The notes under the pieces are model-generated. The model saw nothing but the letters and a program-made list of their open reading frames with translations. It was not told the origin of the DNA and ran no database searches. From the NCBI GenBank assembly GCA_965242965.1, contig OZ251518.1, forward strand, positions 1,408,001 through 1,472,000: 64,000 nt of DNA, written 5' to 3'. Shown here piece by piece: positions 14,350 to 61,587 of the stretch. The position numbers and the translations under genes are program-made. This DNA comes from Candidatus Poribacteria bacterium (lineage in GTDB: Bacteria > Poribacteria > WGA-4E > WGA-3G). Positions within the stretch are counted from its first letter, which is position 1. Each line of letters begins with the position of its first letter.

Positions 14350-14686
14350 GAGGGTGTTTCCTAAATCACTCAACGTCGCCGGGGAAACCCGCTCGCATGC
14401 GCGTATGGCATCCGAGGGCCCCCGCGCTACGATAAAAAACGCTTCCCCTTCACGTAGGGCGAGGGCCTGTCCCTCGCCATCGTCCGTGCACTCCAATGCT
14501 CGCGGGGGACAGGCCCCCGCGCTACGGTGAAAATCAAGACTCACCACCCCTGTAGGTCAGGATCGCCTGATCCTGACCCGTTTGTGATCAGGCGATCACA
14601 AACTACAGAGGGGGCCAATGCCTTCCGGTATTCGCCCGCCTTCCAAGGCGGGATAAATACCGAAACGGAAGTTATGAAACACCCTC
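14350..14686. mobile_element. MITE-like element: inverted ends enclosing REP cargo
   Basis: GAGGGTGTTTCCTAA at 14350 and TTATGAAACACCCTC at 14672-14686; interior C, B and GATCGCC-loop REPs. Confidence 0.6.
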
Positions 14687-14896
14687 AAAATGGTTCAGTT
14701 TCCGCGCGGCGAATTGGATAGAGGCGACAATGTCCTCCGGCTCCAGATCTGGCATTTCCACCAGAATCTCGTCAAAAGAGAGTCCGGCAGCCAGCAAATC
14801 CAAGACATCTGTCACCCGAATTCGCATGCCTCGGATGCAAGGTCGCCCGCCACACTGGCGTGGATTAAAAGTAATTCTGCTCATTGGATTTGACAT
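14672..14896 (-). CDS. DUF433 family protein (putative antitoxin)
   Basis: RITFNPRQCGGRPCIRGMRIRVTDVLDLLAAG...LEPEDI signature. Confidence 0.9.
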   Translation of the reverse strand: MSNPMSRITFNPRQCGGRPCIRGMRIRVTDVLDLLAAGLSFDEILVEMPDLEPEDIVASIQFAARKLNHFEGVS

Positions 14897-14977
14897 GTTC
14901 GTATTCCGCAATGCGTCCGATGAGGGTTTCTAATCCGCATGCCCCCTTGTTCCATTGCCGCCAAAGGGAGAAAGCCG

Positions 14978-16066
14978 TTAATAAATTCCTACAACCACGC
15001 TCTCCTGAAGTTCGGTGAGCAAGCGCACGTTTTCAACGCCGTCCCACGGGTAACGCGCGATCGGTTTCGCGCGTTCCGCTTCGTCACGTTCAAGAAAGCG
15101 CGGCATGAAGAATTCCTTCGTCAATGTCGTTAGCATGACGCGCCCAGTTTCGCCGTAATCGACAGGTTCATCGGGATTCTCCGGGTTTACCAATTCTGTC
15201 ACGGCGCGCGGTTGCGGCGGATAATAGATAATCGCGTAGTTATCCGCCAGATCGAACGGTTTGCACGCGGCGAGCCCCATCAGTGTATTGCCGTAGGTGG
15301 GGACAAAATCGATGCCCGGCACGAGTTCTTCGCGCGCAAAACGGTGGAACTGCGCGTCCATCTCTGTCCCACCGCAGAAAATGCCCTTAATGCCAACCTT
15401 ATTCAGCGAAATTTTCTCACACAATGCCTCCAGCAGTTTCGGCGTGGTAAAGAGACACTGGACGTTTTCATGCGCCCGGAGGACATTGAGTCCCTGCGCA
15501 ACAACGTGATTTTTGTAGTCCTCTAAATCCTGATGTTTGCCATACCGCACGAGGCGGTTTACCCAGCGAGGATCCATGTCAACACAGAAGCATATCCCGC
15601 CGCGGTGTTGGGCAAGATGTTCAACGGCAAGCCGCAACCGCCGAGGCCCCGTAGGACCGAGCATTAAGAAATCGCTCCCCGGTGGAAATCCATCATCGGA
15701 CAACATCTCGCTAAACTGCTCATAATCCGTTTGGAAATCGCGGATGTTAATCCGACACTTCGGGATGCCGGTGGAGCCGCCCGTTTCAAAAACGTAAATA
15801 GGCTCATTCGCGTAAGCCTTAGGCACCCATCGTCGCACGGGACCGCCGCGCAGCCATTCGTCTTGGAAATGTCCGAGACGTTCCAGGTCTGCGTAGCCGC
15901 CAATCTCTTTTCCCGGGTCAAAATCGAGATTTTCGGCGAATTCTAGCCAGAAGGGGCACCCGGTTTTCGGACTGAAGTGCCAGTTGACAATGTCCCTGAC
16001 ATGCGCGTCAAGTTTCGCTTGAGCCTTCGCAATGTTTTGAGAGAGTTCTCGGTTTAAAATGTCCAT
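14978..16066 (-). CDS. LuxE/PaaK/EhpF-like acyl-adenylate-forming enzyme
   Basis: ETGGSTG P-loop, YGNTLMG, GRVMLTTL and RFLERD motifs; GGAG RBS. Confidence 0.75.
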   Translation of the reverse strand: MDILNRELSQNIAKAQAKLDAHVRDIVNWHFSPKTGCPFWLEFAENLDFDPGKEIGGYADLERLGHFQDEWLRGGPVRRWVPKAYANEPIYVFETGGSTGIPKCRINIRDFQTDYEQFSEMLSDDGFPPGSDFLMLGPTGPRRLRLAVEHLAQHRGGICFCVDMDPRWVNRLVRYGKHQDLEDYKNHVVAQGLNVLRAHENVQCLFTTPKLLEALCEKISLNKVGIKGIFCGGTEMDAQFHRFAREELVPGIDFVPTYGNTLMGLAACKPFDLADNYAIIYYPPQPRAVTELVNPENPDEPVDYGETGRVMLTTLTKEFFMPRFLERDEAERAKPIARYPWDGVENVRLLTELQESVVVGIY

Positions 16067-16130
16067 TTTTCTCCGTGACACGGGCGGATAGAGACAGCCG
16101 CCCTTACAGTTCTAAGCCGTTGGCGGAACC

Positions 16131-16736
16131 TCACGCTGTCTGTGCCACCATGCTCGCGAGGATGCCGAGGATTTTGTCGCACTGCGCGATGGGGTAGACT
16201 GCCATGTCAATGAGGAGTTTCTGCGCCTCCAATTTGAGGAAGAGCCACTCTGTTCCTGATGTAACAGTCCCATAGACGCGGGGAATGTCATTTCCTTCTG
16301 CTGCGTTAAAGCGTTGTGCGGCAACCATTTCCGCCGCGCACTGCCCGAACCCTTCGGTCAGATTGTCCCTTTTCGCCTCCACGAGAACGATGACAGGTGC
16401 CTCCAATTCAAATTGCCATGAGGACAAACTTACGACAAAATCACATACCCCGGTCAGGTCGTTTGCGGCATCAACGTTAAAGTCAATGCCCGAGAAGAGA
16501 CTGATGCGGCGCTCAAAATGCTCGCGGAGTTCAACGAGAACGTCGGTGACAATCAGTTCTGACTTCGCTTTTTCGGTGCCGATGGCGGCGGCTAACGACA
16601 CATTTCGCTCCAACTCTGTTATGAGATGTGCACTCGGATTCACCGGGGCGATGCCAGAAAAGAGCCCTTCGGTGTTAACCCTTTCAAGTTGAAACGCTTT
16701 CCGTGCTGCCGCTAAGGTAAAGTTGCTGTATGCCAT
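16131..16736 (-). CDS. PD-(D/E)xK nuclease-fold protein (HsdR_N-like), copy 1
   Basis: EKAKSELIV, GVCDFVVS, VEAKRDN, GQCAAEM and YGTVTSG..W motifs. Confidence 0.8.
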   Translation of the reverse strand: MAYSNFTLAAARKAFQLERVNTEGLFSGIAPVNPSAHLITELERNVSLAAAIGTEKAKSELIVTDVLVELREHFERRISLFSGIDFNVDAANDLTGVCDFVVSLSSWQFELEAPVIVLVEAKRDNLTEGFGQCAAEMVAAQRFNAAEGNDIPRVYGTVTSGTEWLFLKLEAQKLLIDMAVYPIAQCDKILGILASMVAQTA

Positions 16737-16868
16737 CTGATAACCCTCCGTCCACGGGACTATTTTGGTATAAAACACCGGGGATGCATCGAGACCGGGA
16801 GGTCTCTCCTACCCGTCCACGGGACCATTTTGGTATAAAACGGCTATCCGCCTGCCGCTGGGGAAACC

Positions 16869-17474
16869 TCACGCTGTCTGTGCGACCATGCTCGCGAGGA
16901 TGCCGAGAATTCTGTCGCACCGTTCAATCGTATAGCCCCCCAAATCAATGTAAAGTTTTTGTCTCTCCAATTTGAGGAAAAGCCACTCAACACCTGACGT
17001 GATAGCCCCATAGATGCAGGGAATATCGTTGCCTTTTTCGGCATTAAAGCGTTGCGCTGCCACCATCTCCGCCGCGCACTGCCCAAGGCCGCCGATTAGA
17101 TCTTCCTTTTTCGCCACCACAAGCACGATGACAGGTGCCTTCAGCGAAGATTGCCGTGGCGACAGGCTCACCAAAAAATCACACACGCCAACCAAACTTG
17201 CATCGGCATCAACGTTGAAGTCAATCCCAGAGAAGAAACTGATGCGCAGGTCTAACTGCTCGCGAAGTTCGGCGAGGACACCGGCGACAATCAACTCCGA
17301 CTTTGCTTTCTCGGTGCCGATAGCAATAGCTAACGGGACATGCCGTTCAAGCAGTGTCGTGAAAAAATCACTCGGCGGCATCGGCTCAATATCCGCAAAG
17401 ACTCTCGCGGTATCAATAACCTCTAAGTGAAACGCTTCTTGCACTGCGTCCAAAGTGAAACTGCTATACGCCAT
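16869..17474 (-). CDS. PD-(D/E)xK nuclease-fold protein, tandem paralog with catalytic E->V
   Basis: Same 606-nt length and same motifs as copy 1, but VVAKK replaces VEAKR. Confidence 0.8.
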   Translation of the reverse strand: MAYSSFTLDAVQEAFHLEVIDTARVFADIEPMPPSDFFTTLLERHVPLAIAIGTEKAKSELIVAGVLAELREQLDLRISFFSGIDFNVDADASLVGVCDFLVSLSPRQSSLKAPVIVLVVAKKEDLIGGLGQCAAEMVAAQRFNAEKGNDIPCIYGAITSGVEWLFLKLERQKLYIDLGGYTIERCDRILGILASMVAQTA

Positions 17475-17523
17475 TTTTCGTATCTCGCAATGCGCCCGAT
17501 TCGGGGTTCTGAGCACCGCAGCC

Positions 17524-17885
17524 CGTAGGAGAGACCTCCCGGTCTCGATTCTTCCGGTAGGAGAGACCTCCTGGTCTCGAATTCTTCTTCCCCGTAGGAG
17601 AGACCTCCCGGTCTCGAATTCTTCCCCGGTAGGAGAGACCTCCCGGTCTCGATGCACCACCCTATCGGGACAAGGATGTCCCTCCTACCGGAAAACCTAT
17701 CGGGACAAGGATGTCCCTCCTACCGGGGGAGCGAAGTCAAGATCGATGCACTACCCTATCGGGACAAGGATGTCCCGCCTACAGGCTTATCGGGACAAGG
17801 ATGTCCCTCCTACGGGGAAACCTATCGGGACAAGGATGGCCCTCCTACCAGAAAACCTATCGGGACAAGGATGTCCCTCCTACCC
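17524..17885. repeat. Head-to-tail REP arrays: 4x A-type, then 6x F-type in the opposite orientation
   Basis: GTAGGAGAGACCTCCyGGTCTCGA x4; TATCGGGACAAGGATGTCCCTCCTAC x6 (minor variants) with short spacers. Confidence 0.92.
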
Positions 17886-17887
17886 GC

Positions 17888-19480: not shown

Positions 19481-19482
19481 GA

Positions 19483-22204: not shown

Positions 22205-22253
22205 ATAAGGCAGCAACCCGCCGCTTCACCACCGTTCCGATCTCCAAAAAACC

Positions 22254-22457: not shown

Positions 22458-22463
22458 TAATGC

Positions 22464-24964: not shown

Positions 24965-26086
24965 ATGAAAACGCAATTTACACTGTGCAGCTGGCTCCTT
25001 GTCTACCTCTGCTGCGCATTCGGCATCATCGGCATCAACGGTTGTGGTGGTGATGATGATGACGAAGAAGAGGTTGAAGAGGTAAAAGTAGAATTTGTCT
25101 CAGCCAGTCCTACACCGGGGAGCACCCTGGCACCCGACGCAACAATTCTCTTAACCTTTAACGGCACTCCGACAGGGGTCAGTGTGAATGAAGGGCAAGC
25201 CACGGTCACCGGTAACACCGTGACGCTATCGGGGCCGTTTCGACTTGGAGACCGAGATCTGGTTGTCACGTGGGACGATGGCAGGCAACCTTTCACCTAC
25301 ACCGTCAACGTTGAAACCCCCGAGGGCATGGTGTTCATCCCCGCCGGGGAATTCCAAATGGGCAGCATCGACGATGAAGCATCAAATAACGAACAACCCG
25401 TGCATACCGTCCACTTAGACGCATTCTTCATGGACGAATATGAAGTCACCAACTTGGAATACAAGGAATTCCTCTTGGAGAATCCGCGGTGGCAAAAAAG
25501 TCGGATTGATAAGCGATTCCACAATGGAGATTACCTCAAACACTGGAGTGGCAATAACTATCCCTCTGGCAAAGCGAACCATCCGGTAACCTATGTGAGT
25601 TGGTATGCGGCGATGGCGTATGCGGAATGGGCAGGGAAACGGCTGCCGACAGAGGCGGAATGGGAATACGCCGCACGCGGGGGCGTTGCTGGGAAAAAGT
25701 ATCCCTCAGGCAAGAACACGATTTCCACCCGCGAGGCCAACTACAAGGGTCATGTCGGGGACACTACAGCTGTCGGACGTTATGCGGCGAACGGCTACAA
25801 CCTCTACGATATGGCAGGCAATGTCTGGGAATGGTGTCTTGATGAATATGATGCCGATTTCTACTTTGTCTCTCGCAACAGTCGGAATCCGATTTCGGGT
25901 GCGCGGACGATCCAATGGATACTTGATAACTTCGCGAGTATCCCGACCAACAGTTCGCGCGTGTTGCGCGGCGGCGGTTGGCCCGGTCCAGCGCCGAATT
26001 TGCGCGTCGCCAATCGCAACGACACTACGCCAGCGTACACGGGCTCGTACAGCGGTTTTCGTTGCGCGAGGGCTGTTACACCTTAA
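24965..26086 (+). CDS. Lipoprotein with Ig-like domain and FGE-sulfatase (CLec-fold) domain; candidate DGR target
   Basis: INGCGG lipobox, RLPTEAEWEYAARGG, YDMAGNVWEWC, RVLRGGxW...GFRC. Confidence 0.9.
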   Translation: MKTQFTLCSWLLVYLCCAFGIIGINGCGGDDDDEEEVEEVKVEFVSASPTPGSTLAPDATILLTFNGTPTGVSVNEGQATVTGNTVTLSGPFRLGDRDLVVTWDDGRQPFTYTVNVETPEGMVFIPAGEFQMGSIDDEASNNEQPVHTVHLDAFFMDEYEVTNLEYKEFLLENPRWQKSRIDKRFHNGDYLKHWSGNNYPSGKANHPVTYVSWYAAMAYAEWAGKRLPTEAEWEYAARGGVAGKKYPSGKNTISTREANYKGHVGDTTAVGRYAANGYNLYDMAGNVWEWCLDEYDADFYFVSRNSRNPISGARTIQWILDNFASIPTNSSRVLRGGGWPGPAPNLRVANRNDTTPAYTGSYSGFRCARAVTP

Positions 26087-26105
26087 CGCTTAACCGTTCA
26101 ACTAC

Positions 26106-26131
26106 CCCGGCCGCGGCGCGCCGCGGCCGGG
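26106..26131. repeat. Perfect 26-bp all-GC palindrome (cruciform)
   Basis: CCCGGCCGCGGCG|CGCCGCGGCCGGG, starting 20 nt after the FGE stop, with no U-tract. Confidence 0.9.
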
Positions 26132-26157
26132 TCCTCTTAAAAAAGGAGACATCCAAA

Positions 26158-26652
26158 ATGAACCGCAACATCATTTGCATCCTCATCGCACTGATGGTTT
26201 TAAGCATCAGTGCAATCCTCATTGCAAACCACGTTGAGGTTATCGCAAAAATCGCAAGCACCTTGAACGGAACGCCCATGACCGTCACACTCGCTGGAGA
26301 CGCTGACGATACCATTAAGACCCTCGACCTTAAAGAACTCCGGGACAACTGGGCAGACCACGACAGAAAGTTCGTCCGCTTCACAGGCACCGTCGTGTTT
26401 GTTCAAAAAGACCCTCGAACAGAAAAAGTCCGACGGTTAACATTGAAAGGAAACACAACCCACGTGTACCCGCTCGATGCACAGGACCTGCTCTTAGCAC
26501 GGCTGCTGCCCGAAACCTACGAACTCGGAAACACATACGAATTCACAGGACTCCTCATCAGAGACGGAGAACACGCACCCACGCCAAACAGCAGAAACGT
26601 GACACTCCGAATCTACGCTGTTCAGGCAAACAATCTGGGAAAAGCCAAATAA
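26158..26652 (+). CDS. Membrane-anchored or secreted hypothetical protein (OB-fold-like), paralog 1
   Basis: AAGGAG RBS, N-terminal hydrophobic helix, FVRFTGTV...VYPLD...YEFTG shared with the next gene. Confidence 0.8.
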   Translation: MNRNIICILIALMVLSISAILIANHVEVIAKIASTLNGTPMTVTLAGDADDTIKTLDLKELRDNWADHDRKFVRFTGTVVFVQKDPRTEKVRRLTLKGNTTHVYPLDAQDLLLARLLPETYELGNTYEFTGLLIRDGEHAPTPNSRNVTLRIYAVQANNLGKAK

Positions 26653-26664
26653 GGAGAATGTCTC

Positions 26665-27210
26665 ATGAAACGCAAAACACTTTGCATCCTCATCGCGCTG
26701 GCGGTCCTCAGCCTCAGCGCACTCCTCATCGGAGATCCGCCGTGGCTCATCGGAGATGAGCCGTGGCAGGAGATCGCCGATTTTAACATCACTTTTAACA
26801 GAGTGCCCATTTCCGTGCTGCTCTATCGACCGGGACACGAACTCGCTTTTGAGGCCATGGACATCCAAGAACTACTGAAGTACTCGGACATCTATGACGG
26901 ACAGTTCGTCCGCTTCACCGGCACCGTCAATTTTGACTTTACAGATTCCCACGACAAACAGCGTCGGCGGATAGAGTTGTCAAGTTACCCATCGGTGAGT
27001 TACTCATTGGCAGGTTACCCAACTGTTAACGTGTATCCGCTCGATTTACCGAATCCCCCCAAAACCTACGAACGCGGACAAAAATACGAATTCACCGGGT
27101 TCCTCGTGCGATACGAAGAACACAGGAAGAATCAGCCGCGCGGCGAAACGAAACTCCGCGTCTACGCCTTTGACATTCGGCCCCTCGACGAAAAGGAGAA
27201 CAAGAAATGA
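26665..27210 (+). CDS. Membrane-anchored or secreted hypothetical protein (OB-fold-like), paralog 2
   Basis: Same motifs as the previous gene; ATGA overlap with the next gene. Confidence 0.8.
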   Translation: MKRKTLCILIALAVLSLSALLIGDPPWLIGDEPWQEIADFNITFNRVPISVLLYRPGHELAFEAMDIQELLKYSDIYDGQFVRFTGTVNFDFTDSHDKQRRRIELSSYPSVSYSLAGYPTVNVYPLDLPNPPKTYERGQKYEFTGFLVRYEEHRKNQPRGETKLRVYAFDIRPLDEKENKK

Positions 27211-28085
27211 AAATCCAATTCACCCGGCTCTTGTTAGCCCCGCTCCTCGTCAGCCTGCTCTTTGCGCAACCACTGCTGAGTCTCGAGCCACCACTTGTTG
27301 AAGGCATGCGGCTCATTCCACCTGGCACATTCCAAATGGGCAGCGACGATGAGGACGCGGACGATGACGAACAGCCCGTGCATACTGTCTACTTGGACGC
27401 ATTCTTCATGGACATATACGAAGTCACGAACGCACAGTTCAAGACGTTCGTCGACGCAAATCCGCAGTGGTCAAAAGACAACATTGCGGACAAGTTCCAC
27501 GATGGCCGTTACCTCGCTCACTGGACTGGCACTGACTATCCCCCCGGAAAAGCAGAACATCCGGTGACTTTTGTGAGTTGGTACGCAGCGATGGCGTATG
27601 CAGAATGGGCCGGCAAACGACTCCCGACAGAAGCAGAATGGGAATACGCCGCACGCGGCGGACTCGACGGAAAGAAGTATCCCTGGGGCAACACGATTTC
27701 CCCCAACGATGCAAACTACGATAGGCATGTCGCTCATCCGACAGCCGTTGGGAATTATCCGCCGAACGGCTATGAGTTATACGACATGGCAGGCAATGTG
27801 TGGGAATGGTGTCTGGATAAATACGATGCCGATTTCTACCACGTCACCCTTAACAGTCGGAATCCGGTTTCTGTTTCGGGTGGGCAGCCGCTGGCGTGGC
27901 TGCTTGAAAACTTCAAGCAGCTTCAGGGAGACCGCGTGTTGCGCGGCGGCTCGTGGAACAACTTCGCGCAGTTCATGCGTGTCGCTAATCGCAACGGGTT
28001 TACACCCACGAACACGATCGACCGCGTCGGTTTTCGTTGCGTGATGGATGCAGTGCTGTTGGAAAACGGTGTTTTAGGTCCGTAG
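27207..28085 (+). CDS. Secreted FGE-sulfatase (CLec-fold) domain protein
   Basis: Signal peptide and full FGE motifs; the stop codon is supplied by the downstream repeat. Confidence 0.9.
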   Translation: MKIQFTRLLLAPLLVSLLFAQPLLSLEPPLVEGMRLIPPGTFQMGSDDEDADDDEQPVHTVYLDAFFMDIYEVTNAQFKTFVDANPQWSKDNIADKFHDGRYLAHWTGTDYPPGKAEHPVTFVSWYAAMAYAEWAGKRLPTEAEWEYAARGGLDGKKYPWGNTISPNDANYDRHVAHPTAVGNYPPNGYELYDMAGNVWEWCLDKYDADFYHVTLNSRNPVSVSGGQPLAWLLENFKQLQGDRVLRGGSWNNFAQFMRVANRNGFTPTNTIDRVGFRCVMDAVLLENGVLGP

Positions 28086-28400
28086 GACCTTAATGTCTAT
28101 AGCACCGTCGGTACGCATCAAACCGAGGTCCTTTAGGTCCTCAATTCTTCACGGAGTGTCGGCTAGGCATTGCGGGAAACAAGTTATTCTCACATCGGGC
28201 TGCAAAGTATCTTCCGGACATTAAGGTCCTAACGGGCCTTGAAAATGGTGACAGGCACGTTTTTCTATAGACATGTAGGACCTAAAGGACCTAAAGAAAC
28301 GGTTGAGCCAAATACCTCATCATCCTGAAAATCTTGTGAATCTTGCAAATCCTGCTTCAGACACCTGAGCGATCGCGGGGGACAGGCCCCCGCGCTACGG
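28076..28400. repeat. Four-hairpin element, AATCyTG repeat tract and C-type REP
   Basis: AGGTCCGTAGGACCTTAATGTCTATAG...CTATAGACATGTAGGACCTAAAGGACCT; ATCCTGAAAATCTTG...AATCCTGCTTCAGACA. Confidence 0.88.
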
Positions 28401-28449
28401 GACTAAGGCACCCTCGCGCTGCCTCGCTACGAAAAAAAGGAGAATCCAC

Positions 28450-29361
28450 ATGAACAACCGAACACGTCTTTTCTATTTCTTAACCCTAATCCTGTGCCTC
28501 GGGGCGACAGCGATGAACTATGGACAAGCCGTTGCCGAAGAACCCGCAATGGAGATTTCCGCACCCGACAGGATGGTGCTTATCCCCGCCGGGGAATTCC
28601 AGATGGGCAGCAACGACGATGAGGCAGACGCGGATGAACAGCCCGTGCATACCGTCCACATTGACGCCTTCTTCATGGATACCTACGAGGTGACAAACGC
28701 ACAATACAAGGCGTTCATCGACGCAAACCCGCAATGGCAAAAGGACAACATTGAGGACGAATTCCACCGGGGTTTTTACCTCTACTTCTGGGATGGCACT
28801 AACTACCCCGCCGGGAAAGCGAACTATCCGGTGACGCAGGTGAGTTGGTATGCCGCCATGGCGTATGCAGAATGGGCCGGCAAGCGGCTGCCAACGGAAG
28901 CCGAGTGGGAATATGCCGCCCGCGGTGGGCTTGCGGGACAAAAGTATCCCTGGGGCAATACCATTTCCCCCACTGATGCAAACTACGATGAGAGTGTCGG
29001 TGAGGCGACAGCCGTTGGACAGTCCGCGGCGAATGGGTATGGGTTATACGACATGGCGGGGAATGTGTGGGAATGGTGTCTAGATGAATATGATGCCGAT
29101 GTCTACGCTGCGTATCAGAATAGCCGGAATCCCCTCGCTGGTGGACAGACGCTGCAATGGCTTCTTGAGAACTTCACAAGTATCCATACCAGTAGCGCGC
29201 GGGTGTTGCGTGGCGGTTCGTGGCTCAGCGTCGCCCAGGTCTTGCGTGTCTCCAATCGCTTTCTGGAGGCTTCAGATGCAAACCATTACAAAACCTCTTC
29301 GCCTTTTCTTGACGGCAGTTTTGTGCGCCGTTTTGATGACAAGCTGCGGAGAAGACGATGA
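28450..29361 (+). CDS. Secreted FGE-sulfatase domain protein lacking the terminal GFRC strand (possibly truncated or a pseudogene)
   Basis: FGE motifs are intact to RVSNR, then the frame reads through the RBS and start of the next gene. Confidence 0.8.
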   Translation: MNNRTRLFYFLTLILCLGATAMNYGQAVAEEPAMEISAPDRMVLIPAGEFQMGSNDDEADADEQPVHTVHIDAFFMDTYEVTNAQYKAFIDANPQWQKDNIEDEFHRGFYLYFWDGTNYPAGKANYPVTQVSWYAAMAYAEWAGKRLPTEAEWEYAARGGLAGQKYPWGNTISPTDANYDESVGEATAVGQSAANGYGLYDMAGNVWEWCLDEYDADVYAAYQNSRNPLAGGQTLQWLLENFTSIHTSSARVLRGGSWLSVAQVLRVSNRFLEASDANHYKTSSPFLDGSFVRRFDDKLRRRR

Positions 29362-30409
29362 AAAAGAAATCGTTGAACCGGCGGTGTTCAAAAGCACATC
29401 ACCGCTTGAAGGTGCAGATATCGCCATTGACGAGATAATCACCGTTGAATTTGACAACTCGCCCGAGGGCGTGCGCGTCAGCATAGGACGTGCGATAACC
29501 GTCGACAACACGGTGAACATTCGGGGCGGCTTTGACTCGGGTCCCCTCTCCCTAGAAATCTCTTGGGAAAACGGCCCAGGCGGGGATGCAGCGAAAAAGA
29601 TGCTCTCCTACACCGTCATCGCACCGGATATCGAGTTGGAGGTGCTAATCCCCGCTGGCGAGTTCCAGATGGGCAGCAACAGCGACGATGAAGCAGAGCG
29701 AGATGAACAGCCTGTCCATACTGTCTACGTTGACGCGTTCTATATGGATGCTCACGAGGTGACGAACTTGGAGTACCGGCAGTTCCTATTAGAAAACCCA
29801 TCGTGGCAAAAAACGCGTATTGATGCAAACTTCCACGATGGCGCATACCTCAAAGATTGGGTAGGAAACGAGTTCCCAAGCGGCAAAGGTTACCATCCGG
29901 TAACCTACGTGAGTTGGTATGCCGCCATGGCGTATGCGCAATGGGCCGGGAAACGGCTGCCAACCGAGGCCGAGTGGGAATACGCCGCACGCGGCGGCCT
30001 AGTCGGAAAAAAGTATCCCTGGGGCGATACCTATGATGCCACTCAGGTGAACCACGGCGGATCCAGCACGACGGTTATCGGGAAGTATCCTGCCAACGGC
30101 GGGCTATACGACATGGCTGGGAATGTTGTGGAGTGGTGCCTAGATGGCTACCGTCAGAATTTCTATGCTCAATCGCCGCGTCTGAATCCACTGGCGGGTG
30201 AATACACGTTGGAAACGCTTCTGGAGAACTTCGTCAGAATTCCAAATGACCCCGAGGCTTTTCGCGTGGTGCGCGGGGGGACTTGGATCTTTGGTACAGA
30301 AGTCCGCCGCGTTTCGGAACGGTGGCTAGCTTCTGCTGGATACTCAGGGGACTATGAAAACAAAGGCGGCATTCTCGGTTTTCGGTGTGTGCGGCCTACG
30401 ACTAGGTAA
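29276..30409 (+). CDS. Lipoprotein with Ig-like domain and FGE-sulfatase domain
   Basis: GGAGG RBS, MQTITKPLRLF...MTSC lipobox, FGE motifs, GFRC. Confidence 0.88.
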   Translation: MQTITKPLRLFLTAVLCAVLMTSCGEDDEKEIVEPAVFKSTSPLEGADIAIDEIITVEFDNSPEGVRVSIGRAITVDNTVNIRGGFDSGPLSLEISWENGPGGDAAKKMLSYTVIAPDIELEVLIPAGEFQMGSNSDDEAERDEQPVHTVYVDAFYMDAHEVTNLEYRQFLLENPSWQKTRIDANFHDGAYLKDWVGNEFPSGKGYHPVTYVSWYAAMAYAQWAGKRLPTEAEWEYAARGGLVGKKYPWGDTYDATQVNHGGSSTTVIGKYPANGGLYDMAGNVVEWCLDGYRQNFYAQSPRLNPLAGEYTLETLLENFVRIPNDPEAFRVVRGGTWIFGTEVRRVSERWLASAGYSGDYENKGGILGFRCVRPTTR

Positions 30410-33529: not shown

Positions 33530-34230
33530 GCGGGTGTTTCATATCTCAATGGAACCTCCCGGTAGGAGAGACCTCCCAGTCTCGATGCAATAGGGCGGCG
33601 CGCCTCCCGGGGTCGCGGCGGCAGAAAGCATCCCTTCATCGTAGGGCGAGGGCCCTCGGATGCCACACGCGCAGGCGAGCGGGTTCCCCGCGCTTGCGTT
33701 CGCGCAAGCCAACCCGCGCGGAGGACAGGCCCCCGCGCTACAGGAGGGCGGCGGAAACCGCCCGGCGAAACGTAGGGCGAGGGACAGGCACTCGCTATGC
33801 CAATAATGAGAGATGTCTCCGGTCTTTAGGTCTGGAAGACCTTAATGTCTATAGTTCCTCGCAACGCGAAGACTCTTAAGGTCTGTAGGACCTTAATGTG
33901 CAGCCGCACCGCGTGGCTTACGGCCTATTTAAGTCCTAACGGAACTTGAAAACGGGCCGACATGTGTTTCTATAGACATGCAGGACCTAAAGGACCTAAA
34001 GAAGCGGGCCTTTGCAAAAACGGCCGCACCAATCACAACGGAGATAATCCTGAAAATCCTATAATCTTGAAAATCCTGCTTCAGACAACTAGAGGCATCG
34101 CGGGGGACAGGCCCCCGCGCTACGGGCCCTAAAAGCGTTCCTTCAAATCGTAGGGCTTGGGCCCTCGCATGCCACCCGCGCCTGCGAGCGGGTTTCCCTC
34201 GCCATCGTTCGCGCGACCCAACCCGCGCGA
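33530..34230. repeat. Mosaic REP array with an inverted end at the left edge
   Basis: GCGGGTGTTTCATAT at 33530; A, B, C, four-hairpin (33828-33997) and AATCCTG units. Confidence 0.9.
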
Positions 34231-38746: not shown

Positions 38747-38783
38747 ATGGGTTGATTTTTATCGGGAAATGCGTTATTATATT

Positions 38784-39425
38784 GAAGGTGTTTCATATCT
38801 TGATACGTTCGGTAGGAGAGACCTTCTAGTCTCAATGCTGCACTGGTAGGAGAGACTTCCCGGTCTCGGTGCTGCACTGGTAGGAGAGACCTCCTGGTCT
38901 CGATGTTCCCGTAGCGCGTGGGACAGGCCCACGCGTTGTCCAGCGTCACGTTATGTTTTTAGGTCCTTTAGGACCTACATGTCTATAGATACACGTGTCA
39001 GCCCACGTCAAGGTTCTTTAGGTCATTAATAAAAAACACGCGGCCTCTCAAAGTCTATTAAGGACCTAAAGGACCTTAGCGTTCTTCGCGGGCGCGCGTG
39101 CTATAGACATTAAGGACCTAAAGGACCTAAGAGACGTTTTTTCATCGTAGTGCGGGGGCCTGTCCCCCGCGATGGTTGGATTGCGCGAGGCATGGCGAGG
39201 GACAGGCCCTCGCCCTACGACGAAGGGAAGGCGTTATTTTTTCTAGCGCGGGGGCCCCTCGGATGCCATCCGCGCATCCGAGCGGGTTTCCCCCGCGATG
39301 GTTGGATTGCGCGAGGCATGGCGAGGGACAGGCCCTCGCCCTACGATGAAGGGGGCTTTCTGCCGCCGCGCCCCCGGTAGGCGCGCTGCCCTATTGCATC
39401 GAGACCGGGAGGTCTCTCCTACGGA
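38784..39425. repeat. Mosaic REP array with an inverted end at the left edge
   Basis: GAAGGTGTTTCATAT at 38784; A x3, four-hairpin (38961-39128), C/B doublets, A. Confidence 0.9.
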
Positions 39426-39532
39426 AAGGTGTACGTTGAGACAAGGCGGGTGTCCATTGAGACCGGGAGGACGCGCCGTTTTCTTTTTCCGGAAATTTTT
39501 GATAGCCCGGCGTAAATCGGTGAGAAACAGAG

Positions 39533-41803: not shown

Positions 41804-42031
41804 TTACTTCTCCGCTTTAGCGCGAACCGACGGTGATGTTAACTTTGGCGAGTCTTTTCTGGGTTGCGTCTCGGCAAACGTGTATTCGCCGGATTGGCGC
41901 AAGTTGCTTTCCAATGTTTGGCAATATGCAGCCAATAGGCTGACATCGTGCCCGAATTCTGCCGAAATTTCGTGTCGAATTTTGCGAATGTCCTTCACTT
42001 CTTTGCAGGCGAGAATTGTTTCTTTTTCCAT
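41804..42031 (-). CDS. Small protein, putative antitoxin partner of the PIN gene
   Basis: EVKDIRKIRHEISAEFGHD-type sequence; starts 2 nt after the PIN gene stop. Confidence 0.65.
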   Translation of the reverse strand: MEKETILACKEVKDIRKIRHEISAEFGHDVSLLAAYCQTLESNLRQSGEYTFAETQPRKDSPKLTSPSVRAKAEK

Positions 42032-42032
42032 T

Positions 42033-42509
42033 TTAAGGCATCCCTCCCAAAGAGTCAAGAGGTGTCGTTAATTCTGGCGTGGGTAAGCCAAATTCACGAT
42101 TAATCTGAAGAATCAAACCTAACTTATTAGGATTGGCAAGGTGCAGACAATTCCATGTGAGAATCACGTCTACCTCATGAAACGAGGCAACTGCCAAGTG
42201 AAGCGCATCACCTGTTGGGTCTTGAGGCATTATCCCCCTCCCAATATAAGTTTGCGCAATCTGAATAATTTCCACAGTGATCGGCAACATCTCAACGGAT
42301 TTGAGCAAGTTAATCCTATCTTGCGTCGCCGCGCTTTGCCCGCGTCTGAGCTCCAAAATGGTAGTCGCACTTGATGTGAGGATAAAGCGATTCGCGTATA
42401 CACTCCACCACTGACGCGTCAACCTTTTTCGAGTAAGAGCGGCTTCGCTAGTCCGCAAAGTGTAATAGTTACTGGGAATTGATGTCTCAATGTATATACG
42501 TTTTCGCAT
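42033..42509 (-). CDS. PIN-domain (VapC-like) toxin
   Basis: IYIETSIPS, E, DALHLAVA, ILTWNC.HLAN. Confidence 0.88.
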   Translation of the reverse strand: MRKRIYIETSIPSNYYTLRTSEAALTRKRLTRQWWSVYANRFILTSSATTILELRRGQSAATQDRINLLKSVEMLPITVEIIQIAQTYIGRGIMPQDPTGDALHLAVASFHEVDVILTWNCLHLANPNKLGLILQINREFGLPTPELTTPLDSLGGMP

Positions 42510-42520
42510 GGTTGCAACAA

Positions 42521-42549
42521 ATTATACCTTAAAAAAATTTAATTGTCAA
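42521..42549 (-). promoter_or_regulatory. Consensus sigma70 promoter of the TA pair
   Basis: TTGACA-17-TATAAT ending 11 nt before the ATG. Confidence 0.75.
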
Positions 42550-42582
42550 ATCCAGTGCCATCTCGTCCAGAACTATTTAGTT

Positions 42583-42975
42583 GAGGGTGTTTCATAAATA
42601 CCGATAGAAAAACGAGGGAGGACCGCGCATCGGGCTCACTCTGTAGTTCGGGATCGCCCGATCCCGAACAGGTCAGGATCAGGCGATCCTGACCTACAGG
42701 GGTGACGAGGTCTGCGAGCAAAACGCATGGCGAGGGAAACCCGCTCGCATGCGCGTGTGGAAACCTGCGAGGGACAGGCCCTCGTTCTACGGTGAAGTGC
42801 CGTTTTTTCACCGTAGCGCGGGGGCCTGTCCCCCGCGATCGTTGGAGTGCGCGAGCGATGGCGAGGGAAACCTCGCATGCGCGTGTGGCATCCGAGGGCC
42901 CAAGCCCTACGATGAAGGGGCCCTATTGCATCGAGACCGGGAGGTCTCTCCTACACGGATTTATGAACCACCCTC
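42583..42975. mobile_element. MITE-like element: inverted ends enclosing REP cargo
   Basis: GAGGGTGTTTCATAAAT ... ATTTATGAACCACCCTC (16/17 complementary). Confidence 0.62.
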
Positions 42976-42996
42976 CGTTAAACTCACCTAAGACTT

Positions 42997-43025
42997 TTGA
43001 CAAAAAACACTTTTTTTGGTATCAT
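42997..43025 (+). promoter_or_regulatory. sigma70 promoter of the methyltransferase
   Basis: TTGACA-17-TATCAT. Confidence 0.65.
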
Positions 43026-43048
43026 TTTTCCCATAAGGAGAATTAACA

Positions 43049-53885: not shown

Positions 53886-53892
53886 CGTGTTC

Positions 53893-54425: not shown

Positions 54426-54454
54426 GAAGACATTGATATAAGGAGGACTCTCTC

Positions 54455-56754: not shown

Positions 56755-56805
56755 GGACTGACAGGGGTTTACTACCCTGCACTCTTCTGAACGGAGGATA
56801 GAACC

Positions 56806-58158: not shown

Positions 58159-58197
58159 AGTCTGAAAGATACACACTTCCTAAAGGAGGTCTACGTT

Positions 58198-58947: not shown

Positions 58948-59005
58948 AAATCTGTCCGTTATCGTCCTTCCGATAGACAGATTTCCCGTTTGCGTCCCGA
59001 GCCCT

Positions 59006-59560
59006 ATTTCCGGTCTCGATGCTGTAGGAGAGCCCTCCTGGTCTCGATTTTTTGTCGGCGCGCCGTCCCGGTCTCAATTTTCCCGTAGCGCGGGGGCCTG
59101 TCCCCCGCGATCGTTGAATTGCGCGTGCATGAACGATGGCGAGGGACAGGCCCTCGCCCTACGATGAAAGGAAGACGTTTTTATCGTAGCGCGGGGGCCC
59201 TCGGATGCCATACGCGCATCCGAGCGGGTTTCCCCCGCGAGCTCCATCGTCACGATGTATGTTTCCCCCTCTGTAGTTTGTGATCGCCTGATCACAAACG
59301 GGTCAGGATCAGGCGATCCTGACCTACAGAGCCTGGCGAGCGAGGGATGGCGAGGGACAGGCCCTCGCCCTACGGTGAAACGGAGGCGGCCTTGACAACC
59401 GTAGCGCGGGGGCCTGTCCCCCGCGAACGTTCATGTACTCCAGGCATGGCGAGGGACAGGCCCTCGCCCTACGGTGAAACGGAGGCTTTTCTCCTACCGT
59501 AGCGCGGGGGCCTGTCCCCCGCGAGCGTTCGATCGCGCGAGCCATTTATGAAACCCCCTC
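59006..59560. repeat. Mosaic REP array with an inverted end at the right edge
   Basis: ATTTATGAAACCCCCTC at 59544-59560; C/B doublets and a GATCGCC-loop pair. Confidence 0.9.
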
Positions 59561-60026
59561 ACTTTAGCGATTTAGGCGGAGGCCCTTCAATGATAAACAA
59601 CTGGTTTTTGCCAGGGAGAGGTGTCACCTTGACACCTCTCGCCTTCAGCCCTTGAAAGTAGTCAAGTTGTGCCAAGGTTTTTGAATGCGGGTTGAGAGAA
59701 TAAAACGCATAGAGATAGAGGATCTCTTCCTCAAGCGTCCGCATGTCCTTGGCTTCTACCCGATCCAAACAAGCTTGAAGGCGTGCTGGCGTTGTCGGGT
59801 GCGGCTCGATTGTCCAAAGCGCGCAGAGGTAAAGCATCTCCTCCTCAAGCGTCCGTGCATCCTTGGTTTCTAACTGTTTCAAGGTGAACGCCGCCTCTTG
59901 AGGCGTTAAAGGGAACGGATACCGGCTCCCGGGGTCTGACACCATGGGTGCGCATCCGGAGAAAGCCGTTTGGAAGAGGAGGCATCCTATTAGCAAAAAC
60001 GGCAGGAGTCCCCATATCTTGTTCAT
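59559..60026 (-). CDS. Lipoprotein with an internal duplication
   Basis: FSGC lipobox; KDARTLEEEMLYL and KDMRTLEEEILYL repeats. Confidence 0.78.
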   Translation of the reverse strand: MNKIWGLLPFLLIGCLLFQTAFSGCAPMVSDPGSRYPFPLTPQEAAFTLKQLETKDARTLEEEMLYLCALWTIEPHPTTPARLQACLDRVEAKDMRTLEEEILYLYAFYSLNPHSKTLAQLDYFQGLKARGVKVTPLPGKNQLFIIEGPPPKSLK

Positions 60027-60046
60027 GAAAAAATCCTCCTTTAAAA

Positions 60047-60910
60047 TTAGTCATCATCCCAGTTAATGTCGTAGAATGAGATGCCTTCTGCCCGTGCCTC
60101 GCGGTATTTTCCAAGACGGTGCAACCAAACCGCGTCTAATCTTCCGATCTGGTTCACCGCTTCAAGCCGGGCGTAGGATTCATAACGTGAGGCAGGCGGT
60201 GCTGTAGAGTTTTTGCCTGCGGAAGAATAGAGTGCTAGGTATGCATGAAAAAAAGCGTGGCATTCTTGATTTGTTCGGTGGATATCCAACTCCAACTTTC
60301 GGAGAAACTTAACAACGATGTGAACATCGGGAATGTCACCATGCATCTCAATGAGGGCGGCGCGCTTGTGTTTGATCCACACCTCGGGGGATTCTCTTCG
60401 GAGCCTATCCAGAAAAAGACGTTCTTTTTCCTCTTCCATCGGCTTCTTCAGTTTTTCAACCGTCCGCCGGTTGGCTTCACTCGGGAAAAGAAAATACAAT
60501 GCCTCAAAATAAGCGATTAAGCGCGTCGGGTCGGTTGTCCACCCCTTCTCCGGCTGCCGCTCATACTCGGCAATGCAGCGCACCTGCGGGATATCGCCGA
60601 ACCGTTGAAAGAGCGTGGCAGCGAAGTATTTGTGGTATAACGCCGGGTTTGTATGCAGATAGAAATTCCAGCGTTGCGGAACCTCTAGTTGCATGAGTTC
60701 CGCCACTTCCTCTTCTGTCAACCTTATCCACGCTTCGTCCGGCGGGTAAGTAAATTCTGTTGAGTTTGCGGGCATTACCGTGATAGCGGATGCTGCCGTG
60801 GGGGTTTCCATGTCTGCCGCCTCTTCCGAGCCTCCACAGCCGATGCAGAGCAACAGACTGAGGCAGATAGCGAGAGAAAAGAATGAGCGGCAAGTGAACT
60901 GATTTTTCAT
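60047..60910 (-). CDS. Lipoprotein, hypothetical
   Basis: CIGC lipobox; internal repeat FGDIPQV / HGDIPDV; GAGG RBS. Confidence 0.78.
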   Translation of the reverse strand: MKNQFTCRSFFSLAICLSLLLCIGCGGSEEAADMETPTAASAITVMPANSTEFTYPPDEAWIRLTEEEVAELMQLEVPQRWNFYLHTNPALYHKYFAATLFQRFGDIPQVRCIAEYERQPEKGWTTDPTRLIAYFEALYFLFPSEANRRTVEKLKKPMEEEKERLFLDRLRRESPEVWIKHKRAALIEMHGDIPDVHIVVKFLRKLELDIHRTNQECHAFFHAYLALYSSAGKNSTAPPASRYESYARLEAVNQIGRLDAVWLHRLGKYREARAEGISFYDINWDDD

Positions 60911-60927
60911 CGTTTCTTCCTCTTTTT

Positions 60928-61587
60928 GAGAGTGTTTCATAAATCCGTTGGCACGCCATCCCGGTCTCGATGCGAGCGATGTCCCCCGGTAGGAGAGACC
61001 TCCTGGTCTCGATTTTTCCCGTAGCGCGAGCGATGGCGAGGGACAGGCCCTCGCCCTACGATGAGGGGGAGGCTTTTCTCCTACCGTAGCGCGGGGGCCT
61101 GTCCCCCGCGATCTCCCGCGGGGGCCTGTCCCCCGCGATCTCCCTCGTCACGAGGTGGCGTTTTAGGTCCTTTAGGTCCTATATGTCTATAGCAGCATGT
61201 GTCGTTACGTTGTCAAGGTCCTTTAGGTCTTAATAAAAAACACGCTGCGCGTCAAAGTCTATTAAGGACCTAAAGGACCTTAAATCTCTCCACGAGCGCA
61301 CGAGCTATAAACATTAAGGTCCTACGGACCTAAGAAACGTTTTTTCCCCGTAGCGCGGGGGCCTGTCCCCCGCGATCGTTGGAGTGCGCGTGCCTGAACG
61401 ATGGCGAGGGACAGGCCCTCGCCCTACGGTGAGGGTGGCGTTTTTTTCGTGCGCCTCCTCTGTAGTTTGTGATCGCCTGATCACAAACGGGTCAGGAGCA
61501 GGTGCTCCTGACCTACAGTCGGGGAGCGCAAGCTCAATAGCGCGGAGGCCTGTCCCCGCGACGTTGGGAGATTTAGGAAACACCCTC
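60928..61587. mobile_element. MITE-like element: inverted ends enclosing REP cargo
   Basis: GAGAGTGTTTCATAAAT ... ATTTAGGAAACACCCTC; interior A, B, C, four-hairpin and GATCGCC-loop units. Confidence 0.62.

Follow-up and report, generated by a model that had tools for sequence, protein, structure and literature searches.

The short motif that brackets REP arrays in this Poribacteria genome is best read as the terminal inverted repeat (TIR) of a MITE family, the members of which would have been moved in trans by the distant IS982-like DDE transposase of a Poribacteria insertion sequence of ~1.1 kb. Judged from sequence comparison, a probability of about 0.88 is assigned to this reading. The initial annotation of a 64,000-nucleotide stretch of DNA (referred to here as the window) had inferred a non-autonomous TIR element that carries REP modules, and this is supported by the pairing of the ends, their duplications, a matching insertion sequence, empty sites, and the placement of the ends with respect to the REPs. 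The genome under study (G000), of the sponge-symbiont type, has 5.70 Mb in 2 contigs, with an assembly that is 94.7% complete. The sister species G001 and G002 were used for site comparison, and the related genome G022 holds the insertion sequence.

A search of the window for the 17-bp end, allowing up to 3 mismatches to GAGGGTGTTTCATAAAT, retrieved 11 sites, versus 0.18 expected by chance, and none of 100 shuffles reached 11. These are the same 11 ends that had been annotated initially, including the three inward-facing pairs and the five ends described as solo (Table 1), all of which were recovered at their positions; one of the latter, however, is apparently not solo, as the end at 1749-1765 would be the right TIR of a 5454-bp element. 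It had also been claimed that the ends sit at or near array edges and face inward, and indeed all 11 have REP-type hairpins directly inward and unique DNA outward. The shared continuation reported for three of them is found at 5450, 14350 and 61587, which run on with ...CAACGTCGC and a GC-rich REP. The same motif search, when extended to the whole of G000, yielded 1005 ends (222 exact, 350 with 1, 289 with 2, and 144 with 3 mismatches), far above the 2-10 matches given by five shuffled motifs, and most positions of the 17-bp TIR are conserved in >90% of these ends.

Table 1. MITE ends, paired elements and associated features in the window.
Feature	Position	Strand	Details
Candidate 5454-bp TIR-bounded gene-carrying element, right-hand part	1..1765	.	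Full span G000:C1:1404312-1409765
Right TIR of 5454-bp element	1749-1765	-	C-type REPs (GTAGGAGAGACC...) directly inside
Single MITE end	5450..5466	+	Exact TIR; subterminal type A (TGCTCAACGTCGC + long A-type REP); array to ~5664; unpaired within 1 kb
Paired element 1 (337 bp)	14350..14686	.	Type A + type H ends; A-type doublet, B-type doublet, H hairpin
79-aa DUF433 ORF	14672..14911	-	PF04255 DUF433, 83.6 bits; ends ...NHFEGVS (stop)
Single degenerate MITE end	33530..33546	+	3 mismatches; subterminal type C (GTAGGAGAGACC REP); from motif search
Single MITE end (38784-38800) opening a ~700-bp G000-specific block	38784..39490	+	3 mismatches; type C; REPs together with other repeats
Paired element 2 (393 bp)	42583..42975	.	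Ends: exact TIR and GAGGGTGGTTCATAAAT; no target duplication
Single MITE end (59544-59560) closing an array	59085..59560	-	1 mismatch; array of 8 A-type REPs that alternate in orientation
Paired element 3 (660 bp)	60928..61587	.	No target duplication

The ends are arranged as those of a transposable element. Across G000, neighbouring ends that face inward lie within 1 kb of each other in 291 of 355 cases, compared with 22 of 355 for outward-facing and 23 of 294 for tandem neighbours, so that inward pairing is far above chance. The resulting 291 paired elements are 69 to 1000 bp long, with a mode of ~255-300 bp, and represent 2.1% of the genome, while 423 of the 1005 ends have no partner. When the partner search for these single ends was relaxed to 4 mismatches, only a small excess was obtained (29 inward versus 5 outward), and ~380 remained single.

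The absence of a clear target-site duplication, as initially annotated, holds for the three pairs of the window, whose flanks differ at 8, 5 and 4 of 9 positions, but not for the genome as a whole. Exact flanking direct repeats of at least 7 bp are present in 99 of the 291 pairs, whereas ~0.5 are expected from shuffled partners. They measure 8 bp in 63 of these pairs, 9 bp in 25 and 7 bp in 4, and are longer in the remaining 7. If one mismatch is admitted, 139 pairs show an 8- or 9-bp duplication, and the other 152 have none that is recognisable. The flanks also reveal that insertion targets are AT-rich, with a TTAA-like core. The closest family copies in G000 are only 94% alike, and, as a rough estimate, the shortfall of duplications and partners exceeds what simple decay predicts.

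Empty sites also speak for mobility. Duplication-bearing copies were checked in one 20-kb stretch, and two of the three examined show precise presence or absence at the ends, with a clean empty site in a sister species. The first reads AGTTATTT-element-AGTTATTT in G000 and a lone AGTTATTT in G002; the second carries ATTTTAGT in G000, where G001 has one TTTTTAGT. Both empty sites are free of REPs. At the third locus, the sister sequence is too diverged to be read.

It could be argued that the motif serves the host as a regulatory or protein-binding site (an operator, promoter element or terminator flank) that borders REP arrays by coincidence. In agreement with this, 755 of the 1005 ends (~75%) fall in DNA without long-ORF cover, and some ends abut genes: the ribosome-binding site of the minus-strand ORF 60047-60940 has the left TIR of element 3 just upstream, and the right TIR of element 1 supplies the last five codons and the stop of the DUF433 ORF. 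This explanation is nevertheless scarcely credible in view of the duplications, the precise empty sites, and the occurrence of the same sequence at both ends of a multi-copy insertion sequence. Moreover, at up to 2 mismatches the motif has 861 copies in G000, against 2 in a sister genome that is nearly complete and belongs to the same genus, a distribution unlike that of a conserved regulatory site.

Within the window, element 1 exhibits the commonest combination of ends (type A plus type H), and 8 of its 9 flanking positions are mismatched. Its locus measures 679 bp in G000 (14299-14978) versus 10 bp in G001 and 64 bp in G002, a difference that exceeds the element. Element 2 contains a B-type doublet, A-type REPs (the long variant included) and one C-type REP, and its locus spans 1207 bp in G000 (41828-43035, including the ORF 42033-42509) versus 50 bp in G002. 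Element 3 consists of C-type REPs, A-type REPs, a ~190-bp palindromic module of the TAGGTCCTTTAGG type, a B-type doublet and a type A end; its locus is not syntenic with G001 or G002. Comparison with these two species therefore gave no precise empty site for the window's own three pairs, the first two lying in larger differing blocks. These pairs look rearranged, and their mobility as units would follow from the family only. At the single end at 38784, homology with G002 ceases within 3 nt of the outer TIR edge, where G002 holds an unrelated coding stretch. An Rfam scan of the window found no family at gathering score.

The candidate gene-carrying element that reaches into the window has its partner TIR 5454 bp upstream, and its flanks, AGGTTATCG and AGGTTATCT, are identical at 8 of 9 positions. 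It encloses a 1392-aa ORF rich in LRRs (LRR_4, 235 bits). In G002 the two flanks are separated by 18 bp and in G001 by 208 bp, and the left junction is not base-precise. Another TIR-bounded segment of G000, of 3.9 kb, holds a 1023-aa ORF and shows an exact 8-bp duplication. It is roughly estimated that about as many long duplication-bearing pairs as the seven found could arise by chance.

The initial annotation had proposed looking for a transposase between the same ends, and a DDE-type insertion sequence with this organisation was found in related Poribacteria genomes, not in G000. It is 1107 bp long (1106-1124 bp across relatives) and has a single 332-aa ORF. G022 contains 7 copies of 1107 bp, identical to one another, which have perfect 17-bp ends and AT-rich duplications of 7-9 bp. 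At 24 loci with a transposase 72-100% identical, the exact 17-mer is present at both ends in 19, up to 2 mismatches occur in 4, and the left end was undetected in 1.

The predicted protein scores 39.3 bits on PF13612 (cut-off 27) and 26.9 bits on PF01609 (cut-off 23), and 55.2 bits on the NCBIfam IS982 equivalog NF033520, below its cut-off of 130. It shares 25% identity over 114 residues with a bona fide IS982 transposase of a relative, which reaches 249.8 bits on NF033520. According to these data, the enzyme appears to be a distant IS982-like DDE transposase. Members of the IS982 family are ~1 kb long, with one ORF and short duplications, and the 1107-bp insertion sequence fits these ranges. 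The true IS982 elements of relatives likewise generate 8-9-bp duplications, and their ends (ACGTGAGTTTGATAAAT) share 12 of the 17 motif positions. As the partner of the MITE, these high-scoring PF13612 elements were rejected, given that their ends differ (ACGTGAGTTTGATAAA). The motif also resembles the end of IS903 (IS5 family), with its 9-bp duplication; this lead was discarded, with no PF01609 match in G000 and a partner that is apparently IS982-like.

Only a relic of this insertion sequence has been located in G000, with a perfect TIR followed by transposase fragments ~45% identical and interrupted by a stop codon. Profile searches of the genome gave neither a PF01609 nor a PF13612 match, nor a full match to the transposase of the insertion sequence, an absence that refers to a 94.7%-complete assembly, in the missing part of which the gene could lie. 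A search for multi-copy ORFs in G000 found no insertion sequence either. An autonomous copy was also sought among inward pairs 1-6 kb apart, where 7 duplication-bearing candidates were rejected, as none held a transposase and they had only REPs in common. Subterminal sequence resembling the insertion sequence is kept at 39 of the 1005 MITE ends, and beyond the 17-bp end most elements show no likeness to it, so that descent by internal deletion would be speculative.

A different possibility is that the ends are recognition sites of an HUH/RAYT-type tyrosine transposase, in which case RAYT would move the whole block as a BIME-like unit. REPs always adjoin the ends, and in the available part of the report by Di Nocera et al. 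2013 (PMC3733652), the long TIRs on either side of RAYT-like genes are described as making up repeat families of moderate abundance. However, the single RAYT gene of G000 (NF047646, 120.4 bits, cut-off 80) has B-type REPs on both sides, and no TIR end is present in C1:3140000-3155000 (at least 7 kb on each side). PF01797 gives only two matches in G000; the other one is a broken IS605-type TnpA that adjoins a TnpB gene, and neither A- nor C-type REPs were found to flank a RAYT gene. Furthermore, the portion of Nunvar et al. 2010 (PMC2817692) at hand describes IS200/IS605 elements as lacking TIRs or larger target duplications, as opposed to the 8-9-bp rule observed here, and in relatives a DDE transposase gene lies between identical ends. 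RAYT-driven movement of the blocks is accordingly very improbable.

The association of the MITE with REPs is strongly polarised. A REP hairpin appears within 150 bp inward of 724 of the 1005 ends and outward of 82, in contrast to the random placement relative to arrays that would have spoken against the initial annotation. A strict hairpin scan of G000 identified 6377 GTAG-headed REP hairpins in 2050 arrays. Of those on contig C1, 5421 of 6372 (85%) are outside the elements and ~15% inside, and 1458 of the 2050 arrays are unconnected with TIR ends, indicating that the MITE is one vehicle of REPs and does not organise their arrays. REPs thus reside in the genome independently and are, in addition, passengers of the MITE. 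The canonical interior reads A1- A2+ B1+ B2- (inverted doublets), and the variety of interior cargo initially annotated extends to the whole family, with 144 distinct REP architectures among the 291 paired elements.

The question of whether a TIR element captures and shuffles REP modules or REPs preferentially colonise it had been raised from the window. REPs could have entered simple REP-free MITEs after insertion (for instance, by RAYT-driven insertion or local duplication beside existing REPs), which would make the cargo secondary. The presence of a RAYT gene is compatible with this scenario, as are 16 of the 291 elements that lack REP hairpins, 10 of them with duplications and one a minimal copy of 69 bp. 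Inside the elements, REPs reach 8.0 per kb, a density only ~1.4x the 5.8 per kb of non-coding DNA elsewhere, and later colonisation could account for much of the cargo. In addition, 100 of the 211 structurally unique elements retain their duplication, and therefore interiors can change while flanks stay intact. On the other hand, 42 elements at different loci form a cluster with one four-REP architecture, in which an A doublet is joined by a B doublet, and 17 of these elements have their own duplications; the two empty sites that face REP-filled copies are REP-free; and a 263-bp REP-filled copy in G001, with the same layout, is 93.5% identical to a copy in G000. These observations demonstrate that the element carries REPs. 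Secondary colonisation as the source of the cargo is hence rather unlikely; it probably explains part of the diversity, not the REPs in the founders. As to the initial alternatives, carriage stands, later colonisation and remodelling are likely too, and shuffling as an activity of the element is unsupported.

For the MITE with its IS982-like transposase, the following sequence of events is proposed. By analogy with the family, the transposase would need only two inward-facing ends, would cut AT-rich targets with an 8-9-bp stagger, and would move along anything between those ends. Founder elements in this lineage may have held REP doublets (REPIN-like pairs of GTAG-headed hairpins), so that REPs would have spread as passengers, and occasionally whole genes too. 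The family would have grown to ~290 paired elements and ~420 single ends before the transposase was lost, leaving the relic, and the present copies, ~87% alike, would be fossils. Diverse interiors, missing duplications and single ends presumably arose later, through likely remodelling by REP gain and loss, possibly via the resident RAYT, and recombination between the many REP copies. Both the order of events and the agents of interior remodelling are inferred.

MITEs and REPs are usually seen as separate small bacterial repeats, each with its own enzyme, whereas here REPs travel inside a MITE. A literature search of openly available full texts found no DDE-type MITE with a REP-built body. It is tentatively proposed that a two-tier system exists, in which a DDE-type MITE envelope packages REPINs normally moved by HUH/RAYT enzymes and allows their RAYT-independent spread, while REPs remodel or break their carrier, and the ends also ferry whole genes, including that of a eukaryote-like LRR protein. 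If A- and C-type REPs, whose cognate RAYT was not found, owe part of their spread to hitch-hiking, this would be an undescribed interaction of two classes of selfish DNA, and a natural case for how such elements exploit one another. The genome also records a large burst, of ~1000 ends, the driver of which has since been lost. For annotation, it serves as a warning that transposon ends can bound REP arrays. The LRR protein gene in the 5.45-kb element is of a kind thought important in sponge symbiosis, and the same ends around it suggest a simple route for the movement of symbiosis-related genes within sponge-symbiont genomes.

Among known systems, MITECca01 from the Cardinium endosymbiont is an IS982-family-derived MITE with 169 copies that occupies 3.5% of the chromosome, according to the part of the source available (PMC9769881). 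Both families are short, non-coding and mostly intergenic, have inverted repeats that match a ~1-kb insertion sequence, and result from a lineage-specific burst, which in G000 left 291 pairs (2.1% of the genome) and 423 single ends. In the same text (PMC9769881), the Cardinium genome with the MITE still has the parent insertion sequence in intact form, and the MITE seems to have arisen from it by deletion. In G000, in contrast, the parent is present only as a relic, with copies in other genera, and most elements share just the 17-bp end. Moreover, the interior comes from another class of mobile repeats (REPs), in 144 layouts.

REPs, REPINs and RAYT transposases were reportedly treated by Bertels and Rainey in 2011 (PMC3116915). 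The cargo resembles the GTAG REPs, REPINs and BIMEs covered in the accessible parts of Nunvar 2010 (PMC2817692) and Di Nocera 2013 (PMC3733652) in its GTAG head, GC-rich hairpin and inverted doublets. In those parts (PMC2817692, PMC3733652), REPs and BIMEs have neither terminal inverted repeats nor 8-9-bp duplications. Other shared features are the arrays of alternating orientation, the thousands of copies, and the one RAYT gene flanked by its REPs. Unlike known REP systems, G000 has ~15% of its REPs inside a second, DDE-type envelope.

In MITE-flanked gene cassettes, paired miniature ends can move the DNA between them, host genes included. Similarly, the Tn3-derived TIMEs are, in the available text, mosaic non-autonomous transposons built from pairs of miniature ends (PMC4133298). 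The 5.45-kb LRR-gene segment and the 3.9-kb segment with the 1023-aa ORF would fit this kind of gene carriage. The family differs from TIMEs in its transposase family and in its cargo, consisting mostly of small repeats, with genes as the exception. Finally, insertion sequences that target REPs, such as IS621, IS1594 and those of Tobes and Pareja 2006, are cited in the consulted portion of Delihas 2011 (PMC3184786). In both cases, insertion-sequence ends (DDE or other) are associated with REPs; however, in those systems the REP is the target, whereas in G000 the targets are AT-rich, the empty sites are REP-free, and the REPs lie inside the ends.

The 17-bp end GAGGGTGTTTCATAAAT occurs at 11 sites in the window (up to three mismatches), against 0.18 expected by chance, and all the sites listed in the initial annotation were re-found at exactly those places. 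As had been described there, the ends face inward onto arrays of REPs: all 11 have REP-type hairpins directly inside and unique DNA outside, and three of them (at 5450, 14350 and 61587) run on into CAACGTCGC and a GC-rich REP. The five ends reported as solo are indeed single within the window, but the one at 1749-1765 has a partner 5454 bp upstream, outside it.

Features of the 17-bp ends, their elements and neighbouring loci (plain positions refer to the window; C1, the contig OZ251518.1; L001 and L054, stretches of the source genome; L052, a stretch of the sister species G002)
Feature	Position	Strand	Details
Pair 1	14350-14686		inward-facing, 337 bp
Pair 2	42583-42975		inward-facing, 393 bp
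Pair 3	60928-61587		inward-facing, 660 bp
Single end	1749-1765	-	right end of the 5454-bp segment, flanks AGGTTATCG / AGGTTATCT; left end outside the window
Single end	5450	+	
Single end	33530	+	
Single end	38784	+	
Single end	59544-59560	-	
Second long pair	C1:188873-192792		exact AATAAATT duplication; 1023-aa ORF inside
Palindromic module	61150-61340		within element 3
Palindromic module	38950-39130		in the repeat block after single end 38784
Single end with 700 bp of repeats	38780-39490		replaced in G002 by a coding stretch (L052:8821-9451, minus)
DUF433 ORF	14672-14911	-	79 aa; PF04255, 83.6 bits
ORF adjoining element 2	42033-42509	-	158 aa; sub-threshold PIN-domain match, 20.6 bits (cut-off 23.6)
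Adjacent ORFs	25300-30030		73-81% identity to at least five paralogous places in the syntenic G002 region
Insertion-sequence relic	C1:2371746-2371347	-	perfect end
IS605-type unit	C1:3124157-3125711 (L001:267-1821)		408-aa TnpB-like ORF
C-type REP doublet	C1:5517699-5517822 (L054:11200-11323)		9-nt flanks gctctccct / gttctccct, near-identical

Across the source genome (5.70 Mb, 2 contigs, 54% GC), the search proposed in the initial annotation yielded 1005 copies of the motif, 222 of them exact, against 2-10 matches for five shuffled motifs. Conservation of the end reaches a few bases beyond the motif on both sides, with an AT-rich, TTAA-like preference immediately outside it. Adjacent neighbours lie at most 1 kb apart in 291 of 355 inward-facing cases (+ then -), against 22 of 355 outward-facing and 23 of 294 tandem ones. 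The 291 paired elements are between 69 bp and 1 kb long, most commonly about 255-300 bp, and 423 of the 1005 ends are single.

The shortest pairs are flanked by direct repeats flush with the ends, such as CTTTAACT, ACTTAACCT and AATTAGAAT. Exact flanking repeats were found at 8 bp in 63 pairs, 9 bp in 25, 7 bp in four and longer in seven, so that 99 of 291 pairs carry duplications of at least 7 bp, against about 0.5 expected from a control in which the left flank of one element was matched with the right flank of another; with one mismatch allowed, the number rises to 139. The earlier statement that no clear target-site duplication was present is therefore right locally, since none was found when the flanks of the window's three pairs were compared (8, 5 and 4 mismatches of 9), but wrong for the family. 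By rough estimate, at about 6.5% divergence per copy an exact match should survive in around one third of 8-bp duplications, which fits the 34% observed, whereas at most one mismatch would be expected in about 70% and is seen in only 48%. Roughly one third of the pairs, including those of the window, may thus have lost matching flanks or never had them; recombination between copies or adjacent rearrangement could account for such a loss.

The transposase expected between such ends is present in relatives and was not found in the source genome, where a profile search for PF01609 and PF13612 gave no match and a search for multi-copy coding repeats found none. When the motif was searched in five genomes of a sister genus, seven perfect end pairs exactly 1107 bp apart were recovered, all in one genome (G022). 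They delimit seven identical copies of an insertion sequence with one 332-aa ORF each, bordered by the duplications AGATAATT, AATTAATT, AACTAATTT, AATTAAAGT, AATTATCT, AGATAACT and one imperfect repeat. Judged from its sequence, the partner enzyme is predicted to be a distant IS982-like DDE transposase outside the IS982 family proper, because it passes the Pfam cut-offs for DDE_Tnp_1_3 (39.3 bits, cut-off 27) and DDE_Tnp_1 (26.9, cut-off 23), falls below the NCBIfam IS982 equivalog cut-off (55.2 vs 130) and, across the catalytic core, is 25% identical to a true IS982 transposase. The strong PF13612 elements of relatives were ruled out as the partner; they end in ACGTGAGTTTGATAAA and are true IS982 (NF033520, 249.8 bits).

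Homologues of this transposase (E<=1e-40) occur in 35 of the 121 genomes of the order, distributed among families as 26/73 (f1), 9/29 (f3), 0/11 (f2) and 0/7 (f4); none was found at this threshold in the source genome or in G002. A public species collection holds 79 loci, 75 titled Candidatus Poribacteria and four Chloroflexota. The exact 17-mer lies at both ends in 19 of the 24 loci with 72-100% protein identity, four more have it with at most two mismatches, and in one the left end is undetectable; these elements measure 1106-1124 bp. A clade of 39-48% identity bears a different end, GAGG(G/A)GTGTGCATAA...

Traces of the insertion sequence persist in the source genome. In the relic given in the table, the end is followed by sequence resembling the left end of the insertion sequence and, next inward, by transposase fragments that cover residues 1-37 and 192-243, have about 45% identity and contain a stop codon; the sole exact end of G002 belongs to a similar relic. 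Moreover, 39 of the 1005 MITE ends retain a subterminal CGTTGTTGTCAAAA.. that resembles the same left end. At up to two mismatches, the source genome has 861 ends, the sister species of the same genus G001 and G002 have nine (in a fragmented assembly) and two (in 4 contigs), respectively, and 0-22 were counted in each of the 38 further genomes searched. REPs are abundant in both sister species despite the few ends there. The burst of ends is specific to the lineage of the source genome, and the REPs are older than the burst.

Filled and empty sites, whose comparison had also been proposed, were examined for three duplication-bearing copies in one 20-kb stretch of the source genome, and two of the three have a single-copy target in a sister. 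Opposite copy 1 (404 bp, AGTTATTT on both sides), G002 has one AGTTATTT and no element, and opposite copy 3 (302 bp, ATTTTAGT), G001 has a single TTTTTAGT; the spacer of copy 2 is too diverged for such a reading. Both empty sites are free of REPs. In addition, 42 elements of 250-304 bp form a cluster with one layout in common, consisting of an end, CAACGTCGC, an inverted A-type doublet, an inverted B-type doublet, the H hairpin and an end. Duplications flank 17 of the cluster's members; pairwise identity averages 0.87 (0.79-0.94). In G001, one copy of 263 bp matches a copy in the source genome at 93.5% identity along its whole length. This shared layout, the G001 copy and the REP-free empty sites show that REP-filled elements inserted as units, which supports the interpretation of a non-autonomous TIR element carrying REPs.

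The differing cargo noted between the same ends in the window is a property of the whole family, as 144 architectures were counted among the 291 elements. The subterminal types of the ends are A (284), C (344), H (158), IS-like (39), B (24), H2 (14) and other (142). They are combined non-randomly: A-H pairs number 66 (29 with duplications), A-C 59 (35) and C-C 49 (26), only five A-A pairs exist, none with a duplication, and there are no H-H pairs. At the chosen thresholds, 211 elements are structurally unique, 100 of them still with duplications, and 16 lack any REP hairpin. Because of this diversity, either the interiors have changed in place as well, or many different variants each moved once. 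A palindromic module of about 190 bp, rich in TAGGTCCTTTAGG / CCTAAAGGACC words, lies at two places in the window and is also a subterminal type, at 11 ends genome-wide.

The window's own elements are missing from the sister genomes, but as parts of larger differing blocks: the locus of pair 1 spans 679 bp in the source genome vs 10 bp in G001 and 64 bp in G002, that of pair 2 spans 1207 bp vs 50 bp in G002, and that of pair 3 has no synteny in the sisters. The right TIR of element 1 supplies the final five codons and the stop codon of the DUF433 ORF, and the whole block of REP, element 1 and this ORF is missing from the interval between its two neighbouring genes in both sister species. The 158-aa ORF and element 2 are both missing in G002, where the orthologous spacer is 50 bp long. 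The adjacent ORFs at 25300-30030 are a tandem gene family whose copy number differs between the source genome and G002.

Among single ends the polarity persists: 286 have a REP on the inward side and 40 on the outward side. Allowing four mismatches gives a degenerate partner to only about 25 additional ends. The single ends probably remain from elements that REP-mediated deletion or the growth of arrays split in two. Next to the one at 38784, homology with G002 breaks off no more than 3 nt from the outer edge of the end; the translation of the G002 coding stretch found there looks, by eye, like a Uma2-type endonuclease.

Two long pairs enclose genes and may be gene-carrying elements. The 5454-bp segment holds an LRR-rich ORF of 1392 aa, in which Ig-like domains and a dockerin domain were recognised, along with a secretion-tail domain match below threshold. 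The genes flanking it lie 18 bp apart in G002 and 208 bp apart in G001; in this comparison the right junction is compatible with a single target copy, and the left is not base-precise. By a rough estimate from the duplication control rates, however, a few such long pairs would arise by chance alone.

The REPs themselves constitute an independent system, of which the MITE is one further residence, since most hairpins and arrays lie away from the ends and the RAYT gene has its own REPs and no MITE end. A scan restricted to GTAG-headed hairpins whose stems measure at least 7 bp recovered 6377 hairpins in 2050 arrays. Of these arrays, 1458 are more than 150 bp away from any end; within that distance, 425 have a single end, 164 two and three arrays three. 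On contig C1, 951 of 6372 hairpins fall inside the paired elements, which make up 2.1% of the genome. The main REP families are all present both inside and outside; among the five tallied, the share inside is 24-31% for B types vs 14-16% for A types. The elements contain 8.0 REPs per kb and other DNA without long ORFs 5.8 per kb, the ORF mask being a rough proxy for coding DNA. The single RAYT gene (NF047646, 120.4 bits, cut-off 80) has B-type REPs on both sides, and no MITE ends were found around it in C1:3140000-3155000. The remaining Y1 match, a broken TnpA of the IS605 type, neighbours a TnpB gene; ahead of the TnpB-like ORF, this Y1 transposase survives as a 79-aa fragment with two TGA stops within the Pfam match.

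The C-type doublet listed in the table is missing in G001 and resembles an inserted REP unit bordered by a short repeat; it lies beside, but outside, a MITE. By the rough ORF mask, 1485 GTAG hairpins lie within ORF-covered DNA, and some REPs may be intragenic. In the source genome, 7.6% of positions belong to 25-mers occurring more than once.

A full-text literature search found no paper on a DDE MITE built of REPs, and the terms REP, RAYT and 'passenger' did not appear in a term search of the body text of a 2024 review on prokaryotic MITEs (PMC10969869), where 'Rep' turned up just twice, in journal names among the references. REPs, BIMEs and RAYTs have already been described (PMC2817692, PMC3733652), as have insertion sequences that use REPs as a target (PMC3184786). 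A burst of IS982-derived MITEs is known in Cardinium, with 169 copies (PMC9769881), and mosaic transposons formed from paired miniature ends have been reported as well (PMC4133298).
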